Source of the DNA: Frankiales bacterium
GTDB taxonomy: Bacteria; Actinomycetota; Actinomycetes; Mycobacteriales; SCTD01
Length of the DNA stretch: 64,000 nucleotides
Direction: 5' to 3'
NCBI GenBank assembly: GCA_025465465.1
Contig: JAODND010000007.1
Span: 55,102-119,101 of the forward strand
Shown here in pieces: positions 30,168 through 34,309 of this stretch. A program made the position numbers and the translations under genes. Position 1 is the first letter of the stretch, and each line of letters opens with the position of its first letter. The notes beneath the pieces were generated by a model. It was given only the letters and a program-made list of their open reading frames with translations. It searched no databases and had not been told where the DNA came from.

Positions 30168-31543
30168 GAGTCGAAGCTCTTCGCGTCACAGCTGAAGGGC
30201 TTGTACGGGGAGAGCCGTCCGCTCGCGACCTTGCTCAGCTGCAGGCACTGGTTGGGGTCGTGCTCCTGGGTCGGGCCGAAGTGCAGCCCCTGCGGGGTGA
30301 ACTGGCCGCCGACGGCTGCGGGCAGGCTGTTCATGACCTTGAGCAGGTTGTCGCGCGTGATGGTGTCCCCCATGCGTCGGAGCGCCTCGACGAAGATCTT
30401 CGCGCTGAGCCAACCACCCTGGCCGATGTAGCTGATCTGCGCGCGCGACCCGAACTCCGCCTTCACGGTGCGGACGTACTCCTGCACCTCGGGGCCGCCC
30501 TGGTCGAGCGTGGCGAAGTCGCTGGCCACCAGCGTGCCGTCGGTCGACGACGACTGCACGACCGTGGGGTCGGTGAACAGCGGGTCGGCGACGTGCACAG
30601 GGTGGTAGTTCTGCCGGTCGAAGGCCTGCTGCAGGCGGTTGTAGGCGGTCTGGTCGATGAGCGTGGCGAGCCCGTTGACGCCGTTGAGGCGGAACTGCGT
30701 CACCACGTCGTCGTAGGAGGCCTGCGTCACGTCGACCTGCCGGATGTCGCCGCTGGCCAGCGTCTTGCCGGTCGACGCGACGCCCGCTGTGAAGGCCCGG
30801 ACCTGTGCGGAGTTGACGGCCGAGGAGCTGTTGGAGATGAAGATGACACCGGGGTGGGTGACCTTGCTCTTCAGCCCCAGGAAGCGCCCCATCTCATAGC
30901 CGTAGTGGTGCGACTGGAACGCATAGGACCAGGGCGAGTGGTACTCAGCGCCGACGCCGTAGCTGCCGACGAGCGGGATCTTGTTCTGGGCCAGGAAGGG
31001 CGTGATGTCGGCCTCCGTCAGCGGCGCCTGCCAGCCCATGAAGCAGAAGACGCCGTCGCTCACCAGGGCCTGCGCCTGCGACTTGCCGCGCACGCCGCTG
31101 AGCTGGTCGTCGCGCAGGTCCAGCTCGATCTTGTGGCCGTTGACGCCGCCCTGGCTGTTGACCAGGTCGATGTAGGCCTTGGTGCCCTGGGCGCTCGCGC
31201 CGAAGTTGATGGCGCCGGTCTGGCTCACGATGGCACCGACCTTGATGGCTGCGCCCTTCTTGACGGTGCCTGCTCCGGAGTTGTCCGCGGCCACCGGTGC
31301 CTGCGTCGCGCCGCCGACGACCGACGTCGTGGTCCTGCCCTGGGTCCCCGCCGAGCCCTGCGTGGTCAGCGCGTTCGGCACGCCGCTCGGCACCGCACCG
31401 CCGGCGCCGTTGACGTAGACGGTCTTGGTGGTCTGGGTGCTGGTGAAGTGCGTGCCCTGCAGCAGCAGGCTCCCGAAGACGACGAGGGCGACCAGCTGGA
31501 GGGCGAACAGGCCCGCCAGCAGCCGGTCGCGACTACTCAGCAT
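30164..31543 (-). CDS. Leu/Ile/Val-type (Peripla_BP_6) substrate-binding protein, N-terminal TM anchored
   Basis: KVGAIVSQTGAINFG...GGVNGHKIEL motifs; 459 aa; paralogue of the 34309-35688 protein. Confidence 0.8.
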   Translation of the reverse strand: MLSSRDRLLAGLFALQLVALVVFGSLLLQGTHFTSTQTTKTVYVNGAGGAVPSGVPNALTTQGSAGTQGRTTTSVVGGATQAPVAADNSGAGTVKKGAAIKVGAIVSQTGAINFGASAQGTKAYIDLVNSQGGVNGHKIELDLRDDQLSGVRGKSQAQALVSDGVFCFMGWQAPLTEADITPFLAQNKIPLVGSYGVGAEYHSPWSYAFQSHHYGYEMGRFLGLKSKVTHPGVIFISNSSSAVNSAQVRAFTAGVASTGKTLASGDIRQVDVTQASYDDVVTQFRLNGVNGLATLIDQTAYNRLQQAFDRQNYHPVHVADPLFTDPTVVQSSSTDGTLVASDFATLDQGGPEVQEYVRTVKAEFGSRAQISYIGQGGWLSAKIFVEALRRMGDTITRDNLLKVMNSLPAAVGGQFTPQGLHFGPTQEHDPNQCLQLSKVASGRLSPYKPFSCDAKSFDS

Positions 31544-32966
31544 CGGACTTCGGGGTGAACAGCAGACCGAGGAACTCGATCAGCAGCCGCTCGCGCAGCC
31601 GCATCGGCATCTTCTCGAGCAGGGTGTTGATCGCGGCCATCCGCTCCGGCAGGCCGGCCCCGGGCTCGATGCCGGCCAGCGGGAGCAGGGTGCCGAGCAC
31701 GTCGTCGCCGAGAGTCTCGGGGTCGAGGTCCTGCACCGCGGCGAGCAGCGCAGGGTCGCCGACGGTGACGCCTCGGGAAGCCTCGACCGCGACGGCGAGG
31801 TCGACGAGCAGGTCGTCCACGACCGCCTCGCTCGAGGCGGTCAGCGTGAGGTGCATCGACGCCGGCAGGCCGCGGTAGCCGAGCTGCGCCTGGACATACC
31901 AGCCGCGCGCGTTCATCTCGTCGCAGAGCACGAACACGTCGACCTCGTCGCTGGCGATCGCCACGAGGGCCAGCTCGGGGTCGCCCAGCACCCGCAGGCC
32001 GTCGATCTTGTCGACGCCCTCGAGCAGGCGACGCGTCGCGGTCAGCGTCTTCTGCGCCAGCTCGACATAGCCGTCGTCACCGACGGCGTGCAGCACCGCC
32101 CACGCCGCCGCGAGCGGCCCGCCGCTCTTGGTGCTCTGCACCGTCGCGTTGATCATCGTGTAGCCGGTCCAGTCGGCACAGGCGTAGAACTGCTTGCGGC
32201 GCAGAGCGGCGTCGTCGTAGAGCACGACCGAAGCGCCCTTGGGGGCGTAGGCGTACTTGTGCAGGTCGACCGACATCGACGTCACACCCGGCACCCGGAA
32301 GTCGAAGGCGGGTACGTCGACACCGAGCCGCGCGAAGTAGGGCAGCAGCCAGCCGCCGATGCAGCCGTCGACGTGCACCGGGACGCCCCGCTCCAGGCCG
32401 AGCGCCGCGATCTCCTCGACCGGGTCGACGACGCCGTGCGCGTAGGACGCCGCGCTGGCGACCAGCAGCACCGTCCGGTCCGTGATGGCCGCCTCCACGA
32501 GCGACGGAACGGCGCGGAACGTCTGCGGGTCCACGTCCACGAGAACGGCCTCGAGGCCCAGGTAGTGGCAGGCCTTCTGAAAGGCAGCGTGCGCGGTGAC
32601 CGGCAGCACGACCTGGCCGCCGACGATCCCGGCGCGGTCCCGCGCGGCCTTGACGGCAAGGATGATCGACTCGGTGCCACCGCTGGTGAACGAGCCCACC
32701 GCTGTGCTCGACCCGAGGTGCCGGCGGGCGATGTCGACGACGTCGTTCTCCATCGCCAGCAGTGAGGGGAAGACGGTCGGGTCGAGGCCGTTGACGTCGA
32801 GGTAGGACGCATAGACCTCGTGCCCGAGCTCGTCGATGTCGGGGCGCGCCGGGTCATAGACGTAGGCGAAGGTGCGGCCCCCGCGGGCGGCGAGGTCCTT
32901 TGACCGCAGGGCGGTCAGCCGGGCGAGCACCTCCTCGCGCGGCAGTCCGGTGGCGGGCAGCGTCAT
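31533..32966 (-). CDS. sphingosine-1-phosphate-lyase-like group II PLP-dependent enzyme
   Basis: [46 protein letters not shown] (PLP Lys) closely track the SPL family signature. Confidence 0.85.
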   Translation of the reverse strand: [477 protein letters not shown]

Positions 32967-34309
32967 GCCGTCTCCAGCACTCGGCTCGAGAGGTCGTCGT
33001 CGATCTCCCGGTACCGCTGCAGGAACGGCAGGCTCGCCAGCGTGAGAAGCCCTGGCAGCACGGAGAACCCGAGCACCAGCCCGAGCACGGCGGTGTCGGT
33101 CTGGACAGGGGCCCTGGTGCCGGCGTCATAGGAGTGGTAGCCGCTGATCGCGAGGATGACCCCGAACAGCGCCGGACCCACGGCGAACGCGATGGTCTCG
33201 CCGCCCTGCCAGACCCCGGTGAAGATGCCCGCGCGGCCGTCGTGCTCGTCGGTGATGAGGTCCGGCAGGATGGCGTAGGGGAACAGCTGCATCCCCGCGT
33301 ACCCGACCCCGAGCAGGATCATCTGGACATAGATGACGACCTCCGCCTCGTCGCGGGCGAAGACGAGTGACGCGGCGGTGAGACCGAAGATGCCGGTGGC
33401 CAGCAGGTAGCCGAGGAGCTTGCCGCGGGTGCGGGAGAACCGCCGCCAGAGCGGCACCATCACCGCGCACGGGGCGACCAGGAACACGAACAGCAGCGTC
33501 GACTTCTTGGCGTCGTGCAGGACGTAGACGGCTACGTACTGGGCGCCGGTGAGCATGGCGGCGGTCGCCGCCGCCTGCAGGTTGTAGCCGAGGAACAGCG
33601 TCACGAACGGCTTGTTGGCGCGCACGACGTCGTACTGCTGGCGCAGGGTCGCGCGTGGGCCGGTGAGCGGCGCCGTCGTCCGGGCCTCGCGGGTGCCCCG
33701 CCAGGCGGTGAGGAAGGCCACCGCGAGGATGCCGGCGACGACGACGGACATCCAGGCATAGCTCGACGCCGAGCCGCCCTTGCCCTCGTTGTCGGCGCCC
33801 GCGATGGTCGGCGCGAGCGCCCCGCCGACCAGGATGCCGACGGTCAGCAGCACCATGCGGACGCTCGTGATGCGGGTGCGCTCGTGGTAGTCGTCGGTCA
33901 TCTCCGGCGGCATCGCCGACCAGGGCACGCAGAAGACGGCGTAGAACGTCATCGCGACCGTGAACACCGCGGTCACGTAGATGGCGCTGGCCAGGTGGCT
34001 CCCGAGCTTGGGCGCGGTGAACAGCAGGACGAACGCCAGCGACGTGCCGAGACCGCCGACGAGCATGAACGGCCGGCGCTTGCCGTAGCGGTTGGTGGTG
34101 CGGTCGGAGATGCCGCCCATCAGCGGGTTGGCGAACGCGTCCCAGAGCTTCGGGACGAACAGCGCGGCACTCGCCAGCCCGGCGCCGATGCCGAGGATGT
34201 TGGTCATGTAGAACAGCAGCAGCAGGCCGGGCACGGTGACGAAGACGCCGTTGCCGATGGCCCCTGCGCCGTAGGAGACGGTCAGCCGGCGGGAGAGCTG
34301 CGCCGCCAT
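32963..34309 (-). CDS. GPH/MFS_2 (MelB/MFSD2-like) cation symporter
   Basis: DAFANPLMGGISDRTTNRYGKRRPFML motif; 12 TM; ATG at 34309 overlaps the upstream stop (TGATG). Confidence 0.8.
   Translation of the reverse strand: MAAQLSRRLTVSYGAGAIGNGVFVTVPGLLLLFYMTNILGIGAGLASAALFVPKLWDAFANPLMGGISDRTTNRYGKRRPFMLVGGLGTSLAFVLLFTAPKLGSHLASAIYVTAVFTVAMTFYAVFCVPWSAMPPEMTDDYHERTRITSVRMVLLTVGILVGGALAPTIAGADNEGKGGSASSYAWMSVVVAGILAVAFLTAWRGTREARTTAPLTGPRATLRQQYDVVRANKPFVTLFLGYNLQAAATAAMLTGAQYVAVYVLHDAKKSTLLFVFLVAPCAVMVPLWRRFSRTRGKLLGYLLATGIFGLTAASLVFARDEAEVVIYVQMILLGVGYAGMQLFPYAILPDLITDEHDGRAGIFTGVWQGGETIAFAVGPALFGVILAISGYHSYDAGTRAPVQTDTAVLGLVLGFSVLPGLLTLASLPFLQRYREIDDDLSSRVLETA

Follow-up and report, generated by a model that had tools for sequence, protein, structure and literature searches.

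We analysed a 64,000-nucleotide stretch of the forward strand of a contig from a Frankiales bacterium, an actinobacterium of soil (JAODND010000007.1, assembly GCA_025465465.1, positions 55,102 to 119,101; hereafter the window), in which the gene for a pyridoxal 5'-phosphate (PLP) enzyme overlaps the gene for an MFS_2 transporter directly upstream. Judged by its sequence, the enzyme is a lyase of the sphingosine-1-phosphate lyase (SPL) family and a member of a large uncharacterised sister clade of the characterised sphingosine 1-phosphate (S1P) lyases. We tentatively propose that the pair serves to import a 2-amino-3-hydroxy compound, which the enzyme would cleave in the cytosol by an SPL-type retro-aldol reaction and whose head group would differ from that of S1P. 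The novelty lies in an SPL subfamily that is uncharacterised, found in many lineages and provided with its own MFS_2 partner; it does not amount to a system of a new kind. A literature search on actinobacterial SPLs or SPL/MFS operons found no study of the clade or of the gene pair.

The gene pair

The enzyme gene (31533..32966, minus strand) encodes 477 amino acids, with the PLP lysine at K237 and the motifs NGLD62P and Y35-V-Y37; we refer to its subfamily as Asp-type. The gene of the MFS_2/GPH-family transporter occupies 32963..34309 on the same strand. Its open reading frame (ORF) spans 32963..34387, but an internal in-frame ATG at 34309 yields a product of 448 residues, and since transporter orthologues are 440-450 residues long, we place the start at 34309. 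The extent that an initial annotation of this DNA, made from the letters alone, had given to the two genes (31533-34309) is thereby confirmed exactly by the ORF list and the orthologue lengths. The ATGA overlap it had reported is likewise present in the DNA, the transporter stop TGA and the enzyme start ATG sharing these four letters in ACGGCATGACG, and all motifs it had cited, DWTGY, TSGGTESI and HVDGCIGG among them, occur in the enzyme translation. On the other side, a TGATG overlap joins the transporter start at 34309 to the stop codon of a binding-protein gene, SBP1. GC content at third codon positions (GC3) is 0.94 in both the enzyme and the transporter gene, which argues that they are real genes and not chance ORFs.

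Family placement of the enzyme

In Pfam the enzyme belongs to Pyridoxal_deC (PF00282), a generic model whose threshold it passes. When the enzyme was searched against all PDB sequences, the ten best matches were S1P lyases without exception. StSPL (3mad) led with 286.6 bits (E 3.5e-84), and human SGPL1 (259.6 bits), Burkholderia pseudomallei S1PL2021 (250.1), yeast Dpl1p (245.7), Aspergillus SPL (225.5) and Legionella SPL (168.9) were also matched, as against 97.4 bits for MfnA and 40-48 bits for glutamate decarboxylases (GADs). An AlphaFold2 model of the enzyme (pLDDT 90.9, pTM 0.91) gave the same picture: Foldseek superposed it on StSPL and human SPL with TM scores of 0.85-0.90 over about 480 columns, and the 21 top matches were all SPLs, with MfnA and GAD well behind. 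Sequence and structure thus agree with the earlier view of the protein as SPL-like and not GAD-like. The best NCBIfam model is that of MfnA, yet the enzyme fails this equivalog model (TIGR03812; 210.6, cutoff 299.4) and, by a wider distance, that of GAD (TIGR01788; 82.9, cutoff 380.4).

With StSPL (3MAD/3MAU) and human SGPL1 (4Q6R) the enzyme shares the fold of a dimeric PLP family and 33-36% identity. It differs from them at both ends and in having a gene coupled to that of a transporter. Its N-terminus aligns to residue 71 of the StSPL chain and contains no hydrophobic stretch, which bears out the earlier statement that it has no N-terminal transmembrane segment. At the other end, a tail of about 80 residues (398-477), longer than in StSPL and SGPL1, extends past the HMMER-aligned core; it is conserved across the whole subfamily and predicted to be helical. 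The C-terminal extension, put at some 90 residues in the initial annotation, is thus present but not unique: the Foldseek alignment with StSPL and human SPL covers about 480 columns, and S1PL2021 also carries a C-terminal extension, there lying over the substrate funnel.

The active site

Active-site residues were mapped by alignment onto the residue tables of a review (PMC10243590) and of McLean et al. 2017, Table S2 (PMC5234717). All PLP-binding residues of StSPL (K311, D274, H201, C276, G168/T169, H310, S353) have equivalents in the enzyme (K237, D200, H126, C202, G97/T98, H236, T279), the only exchange being serine to threonine at the last. Three contacts of StSPL to the substrate phosphate are also kept, Y37 corresponding to Y105, N59 to N126 and K243 to K317, and the three are invariant in the subfamily of the enzyme. 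The last of them is SPL-specific: this lysine stands six residues after the PLP lysine, where MfnA has isoleucine. Conversely R371 of MfnA, the arginine that we assume to anchor the alpha-carboxylate in group II decarboxylases, is replaced by His372, as in StSPL; histidine occupies this position in 110 of 136 SPL-like representatives. The retained PLP set, the equivalents of Y105, N126 and K317 and the exchange of arginine for histidine together argue for cleavage of the C-alpha/C-beta bond, the retro-aldol chemistry presumably shared with StSPL and SGPL1, over decarboxylation.

The remaining two of the five phosphate contacts are altered, His129 of StSPL being Asp62 and Ala103 being Tyr35 in the enzyme. 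In addition, the channel residue Gly343, located in a loop beside the channel residues that were used to 'humanise' StSPL, has become Tyr269; the humanising positions themselves stay hydrophobic (Y175, M271, I272). By this alignment, an acidic residue and two bulky aromatic ones have been substituted into the head-group cup and channel.

The His129 position is occupied by histidine in StSPL and in the yeast, human and Legionella SPLs, and by glutamine or arginine in two active Burkholderia enzymes (PMC5234717). The Burkholderia pseudomallei proteins S1PL2021 and S1PL2025 (5K1R) resemble the window enzyme in being soluble, in lacking a membrane anchor and in the loss of histidine here, but their glutamine or arginine can still donate to the phosphate, whereas the window enzyme has aspartate; they are furthermore reported as secreted and tied to virulence, with no MFS partner reported. 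S1PL2021, the one with glutamine, still acts on unphosphorylated sphingosine, with about 8% of the rate it shows on S1P, so changes at the His129 position may accompany a relaxed need for phosphate. Judging from these residues, the substrate probably bears something other than a phosphate monoester at C1.

A sister clade with aspartate in the phosphate cup

The substitution is not a private feature of the window enzyme. Aspartate stands at the His129 position in all of the approximately 70 genomic homologues retrieved, save for asparagine in two Bacteroidota. Among 150 representatives obtained by clustering at 50%, the residue is aspartate in 56, asparagine in 31, histidine in 17 and serine in 11, with a few others. 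In a neighbour-joining tree, admittedly crude, of 128 representatives drawn from the 150 nearest to the query, 50 of 52 Asp-type sequences share one clade with the window enzyme, and a second clade is made up of 15 His-type sequences, StSPL among them. Placed phylogenetically, as the initial annotation had recommended, the SPL-like enzyme falls in a clade of its own type and is no orthologue of the characterised S1P lyases.

The two types also differ in architecture: the His-type proteins have an N-terminal hydrophobic extension of 80-170 residues and the Asp-type proteins have none, carrying instead a C-terminal tail of about 75-90 residues. A scan for clade-specific positions returned three (H129/D62, G343/Y269 and L434/Q361, in StSPL and window numbering). 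A103/Y35 co-varies with them; position 103 is alanine, threonine or cysteine in 15 of 17 His-type sequences and tyrosine in 45 of 56 Asp-type ones. Characterised S1P lyases, in short, all have histidine, glutamine or arginine in the phosphate cup, while a sister clade spanning several phyla has aspartate together with two extra tyrosines.

Public databases label close homologues inconsistently, by automatic annotation, as 'sphinganine-1-phosphate aldolase', 'gadB' or 'aspartate aminotransferase family'. All three labels are unverified, and as they are mutually exclusive, at least two must be wrong. Among the SPL-like representatives, P0191 (1187 residues), P0151 (641) and P0173 (627) far exceed the others in length and are apparent fusions with large extra C-terminal regions.

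The transporter

The initial annotation had assigned the upstream gene to the GPH/MFS_2 family that includes MFSD2A, and this proved right. The protein matches Pfam MFS_2 with 269 bits over model positions 1-424 of 427. As a single sequence it is nearly equidistant in the PDB from MelB (74 bits) and zebrafish Mfsd2a (71 bits), but with a profile built from 28 orthologues MFSD2A reaches 146-158 bits and MelB 122-128; MFSD2A/MFSD2B structures (7N98, 7OIX, 7MJS, 8D2S) are the best PDB matches of this profile. With the melibiose/Na+ symporter MelB the transporter shares the Pfam family, length and topology. However, its score on TIGR00792 (189) stays below the cutoff of 231, and the sugar-binding residues of MelB are gone (D19 being glycine, D124 cysteine or glutamine, and W128 serine). 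By the correspondence of cation sites between MelB and MFSD2A given in PMC10013850, the first aspartate (D55 of MelB, D93 of MFSD2A) is invariant and equals D57 of the transporter, the sole cation-site residue kept. The motif in the fourth transmembrane helix reads FQVPY or FCVPW in the family of the window transporter and FHVPY in MFSD2A. On its sequence, then, the transporter is an MFS_2 member and no sugar carrier, leaning to the MFSD2 branch.

Linkage of the pair across genomes

Next, we surveyed the co-occurrence of the two genes, as had also been recommended. Enzyme homologues are encoded at 73 genomic loci. Wherever an actinobacterial locus includes the DNA upstream of the enzyme gene, the next gene there is an MFS orthologue on the same strand; these loci come from Frankiales/Mycobacteriales metagenome-assembled genomes (MAGs), Nocardioides, Rhodococcus/Prescottella including P. 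equi, Leifsonia, Nanopelagicales and Micrococcales. The pairing holds down to 41% identity of the enzyme and 36% of the MFS protein. One Vicinamibacteria locus is arranged like the actinobacterial pair, whereas the MFS gene is absent at the enzyme loci of Myxococcota, Planctomycetota, Alphaproteobacteria and Bacteroidota.

Approached from the transporter side, the association persists. Six MFS homologues of 41-47% identity were looked up, and an SPL-like gene adjoins five of them, in coupled orientation in two loci (L075, L080) and divergently in three (L074, L077, L079). The divergent loci come from a Dethiobacteria MAG and from two metagenome contigs without classification, of which one is labelled MLSed, and their enzymes have tryptophan or tyrosine at the His129-equivalent position. 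An association that survives rearrangement is good evidence for a functional pair.

No third partner emerged. When the ORFs of Nocardioides, Rhodococcus/Prescottella, Leifsonia and Nanopelagicales loci were clustered, the MFS and enzyme genes alone proved common to them, and a kinase, an aldehyde dehydrogenase or an ethanolamine enzyme, sought beside the pair in these four lineages, was conserved in none; no long-chain-base kinase was linked there. The neighbours are specific to each genus and unrelated (trehalose-6-phosphate synthase, alpha/beta hydrolase, PfkB, YdjM, Mrp). The lack of any other conserved neighbour suggests that the pair is self-sufficient. For the homologues in Myxococcota, Planctomycetota, Alphaproteobacteria and Bacteroidota no common neighbour theme was found either, the genes there including a short-chain dehydrogenase/reductase (SDR) with a class-III aminotransferase, penicillin amidase, TetR, SBP_bac_5 and a 2-oxoglutarate oxygenase.

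Several single loci deserve mention. The Asp-type homologues of Myxococcota loci L014-L016 lie between the SDR and class-III aminotransferase genes, with no MFS partner. A gene for a penicillin amidase (Ntn N-acyl hydrolase) adjoins the enzyme gene in L027 and is found near the MFS/enzyme pair in L079. In divergent loci L074, L077, L078 and L079, where the residue equivalent to His129 is tryptophan or tyrosine, the SPL-like gene is followed by one for a Zn_ribbon_8 protein of 56 residues. The sixth MFS homologue (47% identity; L081, 5001-8688), the nearest one that lacks an SPL-like gene beside it, is coupled to an FMO-like flavin monooxygenase and an SDR of the 3-beta-hydroxysteroid dehydrogenase/epimerase type, with a TetR gene and an AidB-like acyl-CoA dehydrogenase upstream; these neighbours may hint at the substrate class. 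In L080 (7906-11353), from another actinomycete lineage, the genes that come after the pair encode an ANTAR response regulator, a Peripla_BP_5/6 binding protein and LIV-type ATPases. We considered this as an independent second association of the pair with an ATP-binding cassette (ABC) importer and dropped it, the binding protein not being detectably related to those of the window.

The surrounding operon

What had escaped the initial annotation is that the pair forms part of a longer operon for an ABC transporter. The order of this operon is SBP1, MFS transporter, enzyme, SBP2, LivHM permease, LivG, LivF and a 430-residue protein, all on the minus strand and all with GC3 of at least 0.91, in a window of about 72% GC. 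SBP1 (34309..35688) is a Peripla_BP_6 binding protein of the LIV type with an N-terminal membrane anchor and a low-complexity linker; SBP2 (30164..31543), its LIV-type Peripla_BP_6 paralogue with 53% identity, starts 11 nucleotides within the 3' end of the enzyme gene. Then follow a fused LivH/LivM-type permease of 634 residues with two BPD_transp_2 domains (28263..30167), a LivG-like ATPase with ABC_tran and BCA_ABC_TP_C domains (27496..28266) and a LivF-like ATPase (26636..27496). The set of a LIV/HAAT-type importer is therefore complete within the operon, from Peripla_BP_6 proteins and BPD_transp_2 permease to both ATPases. Searches of the PDB with SBP1 and SBP2 gave only very distant matches of the Leu/Ile/Val type (E 1e-8 or weaker), from which no ligand can be inferred. 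Outside the Frankiales-like clade the pair occurs without this ABC operon.

The last gene (25347..26639) overlaps that of the LivF-like ATPase by 4 nucleotides. Its product, which has a signal peptide, a C-terminal anchor, a body rich in Ala, Val, Thr and Gly and a Pro-rich segment, matches nothing in Pfam, NCBIfam or the PDB; it is syntenic but fast-evolving in relatives (46-81% identity). On the same strand, 118 nucleotides downstream of the operon, lies the gene of a fold-type III PLP enzyme (24140..25228; Ala_racemase_N and D-ser_dehydrat domains) of the D-threonine-aldolase / 3-hydroxy-D-aspartate-aldolase (BhcC-like) type, on which the BhcC model scores 157 bits, below its cutoff. Its synteny is kept in relatives at 71-90% identity, and this second gene of retro-aldolase type in the block possibly belongs to the operon unit.

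Divergently from SBP1 runs a gene for a TetR-family regulator (35748..36389, plus strand), which is conserved in Frankiales loci. The intergenic region contains a conserved motif of about 24 nucleotides, TGATGTGAGGATCGTTCACGTTCT (35744..35767, no strand assigned), a candidate operator or promoter element. Read in the direction of the operon it is AGAACGTGAACGATCCTCACATCA, nearly identical throughout the loci of the Frankiales clade (L001, L003, L004, L005, L006 and L013), where it is preceded by TTGACC. As the GTG with which the annotated TetR ORF begins overlaps this motif, the true start likely lies some 33 codons downstream, probably near 35847 at MRVERML; the TetR_N domain begins at residue 40 of the annotated ORF. 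A perfect 17-bp palindrome upstream of SBP1, TGTCGAGGTACTCGACA (35715-35731), was rejected as a conserved operator: it is unique in the window but absent from related loci, which share only the half TGTCGAGGAG with the likely ribosome-binding site. A scan for consensus promoters and terminators gave nothing above background.

A translationally coupled operon with a LIV-type ABC importer, two binding proteins and a divergent TetR gene points to regulated scavenging of an external compound.

Proposed function and alternatives

Under the function that we tentatively favour, the MFS_2 transporter would import an amphiphilic or polar 2-amino-3-hydroxy compound. The soluble cytoplasmic enzyme would form the external aldimine of this substrate with PLP at K237 and break its C-alpha/C-beta bond by an SPL-type retro-aldol reaction, to give an aldehyde and a two-carbon amino alcohol. 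With respect to the C1 group, the candidates would be a free sphingoid base, a long-chain amino alcohol that is 1-deoxy or modified in some other way, or a compound with a cationic or zwitterionic head group. The initial annotation had raised the possibility of action on host or environmental sphingoid-base phosphates or a structurally analogous compound. Of these, S1P has become doubtful in view of Asp62, Tyr35 and Tyr269, the separate clade and the lack of a linked kinase, while an analogous substrate fits better. The accompanying statement that Actinobacteria are not known to make sphingolipids has to be softened, as some are reported to carry genes for ceramide synthesis (PMC12134224).

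Near-obligate pairing in Actinobacteria provides a testable handle on a possible new route of catabolism or detoxification, for sphingoid bases or related amino alcohols, which would operate in organisms not established as sphingolipid producers. As a bacterial model of the MFSD2 branch the transporter would be tractable, and the presence of the pair in the macrophage pathogen Prescottella (Rhodococcus) equi opens a possible host-lipid angle. A bolder version, which we regard as speculative and on balance improbable, would make the whole Asp-type clade a kinase-independent family of 'sphingoid-base lyases' for free long-chain amino alcohols, served by an MFSD2A-like importer; sphinganine, phytosphingosine, 1-deoxysphinganine and hydrolysed fumonisin-like toxins would be its candidate substrates. 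If it were true, two genes would give soil and host-associated Actinobacteria, P. equi included, a way to feed on eukaryotic sphingoid bases or to detoxify them, and the conserved partner would rank as the first MFSD2A-like importer of such lipids from a bacterium.

Several observations weigh against a 2-amino-3-hydroxy substrate with a head group unlike that of S1P. The His129 position varies in enzymes proven active on S1P (glutamine and arginine in Burkholderia), so an aspartate there is in itself compatible with S1P, and the retained K243, Y37 and N59 could still bind an anionic group. The separation of the clades comes from the crude tree described above. In the transporter, the second cation-site aspartate (D59 of MelB, D97 of MFSD2A) is asparagine in most orthologues, being kept in Leifsonia and L038, and the lysine (K377, K436) is alanine; with these exchanges, lysolipid transport is only a possible activity, and import only a possible direction. 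The LIV-type ABC importer and the D-threonine-aldolase-like neighbour, finally, fit a small polar substrate equally well.

The enzyme could alternatively be a genuine lyase of S1P, or of its dihydro- or phyto-forms, to which an MFSD2-like importer would supply long-chain-base phosphates of host, plant or fungal origin, but we consider this unlikely. All best sequence and structure matches are indeed S1P lyases, all PLP-binding residues and three of the five phosphate contacts are kept, the active Burkholderia enzymes accept glutamine or arginine for His129 and also do without a membrane anchor, and close homologues bear the name 'sphinganine-1-phosphate aldolase' in IMG; MFSD2B, of the same superfamily branch, is reported to be an S1P transporter (PMC5862976). 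Against this stand a negatively charged residue in place of His129 across some 70 genomic homologues (with asparagine in the two Bacteroidota), two tyrosines that fill the pocket at Ala103 and Gly343, and a clade apart from all characterised SPLs. The transporter-linked relatives in other phyla, moreover, have tryptophan or tyrosine at the His129 position, and free long-chain-base phosphates are scarce in soil, with no kinase linked to the pair.

A small polar beta-hydroxy amine or amino compound, processed in an amino-acid-like nutrient pathway with the LIV importer and the D-threonine-aldolase-like enzyme, is a similarly doubtful substrate. Such a pathway would account for two binding proteins in the operon and for a second PLP gene of retro-aldolase type that stays syntenic in relatives. 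Polar solutes are the usual cargo of GPH transporters, the extra tyrosines narrow the pocket, and in Myxococcota the homologues are flanked by an SDR on one side and a class-III aminotransferase on the other. Yet the ABC operon is confined to one clade of the pair's range, the transporter has lost the sugar-binding residues of MelB and its profile is nearer to MFSD2A, and the humanising channel positions are hydrophobic.

It is very improbable that the pair is an amino-acid decarboxylase with an MFS precursor/product exchanger, like the GadB/GadC and TyrDC/TyrP modules: the enzyme has the group II decarboxylase fold and the PF00282 match, it belongs to the superfamily of the tyrosine/aspartate decarboxylase MfnA (3F9T), its Asp62 corresponds to the aspartate of the MfnA motif NLGDP (N-x-x-D-P) and a transporter beside a decarboxylase is, as generally known, a classic arrangement, but similarity to MfnA is much lower than to SPL (97 against 287 bits), both equivalog cutoffs are missed (210 against 299 and 83 against 380), R371 has given way to histidine, the SPL-specific K317 is kept where MfnA has isoleucine, and the exchangers generally known from such modules belong to the APC and AAEx families, not to MFS_2.

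Other genes of the window

Elsewhere the window carries housekeeping genes, and genes for serine palmitoyltransferase, ceramide synthase, long-chain-base kinase and fatty aldehyde dehydrogenase were not found there. ThiG (37437-38315, minus strand) and a ThiH-like radical-SAM/BATS protein lie within 36391-38315; the 608-residue ORF at 36391-38217 has a long N-terminal extension over thiG that is probably spurious. A minus-strand gene at 44594-45574, unlinked to the operon, encodes a Beta_elim_lyase-family protein of the low-specificity L-threonine aldolase type.

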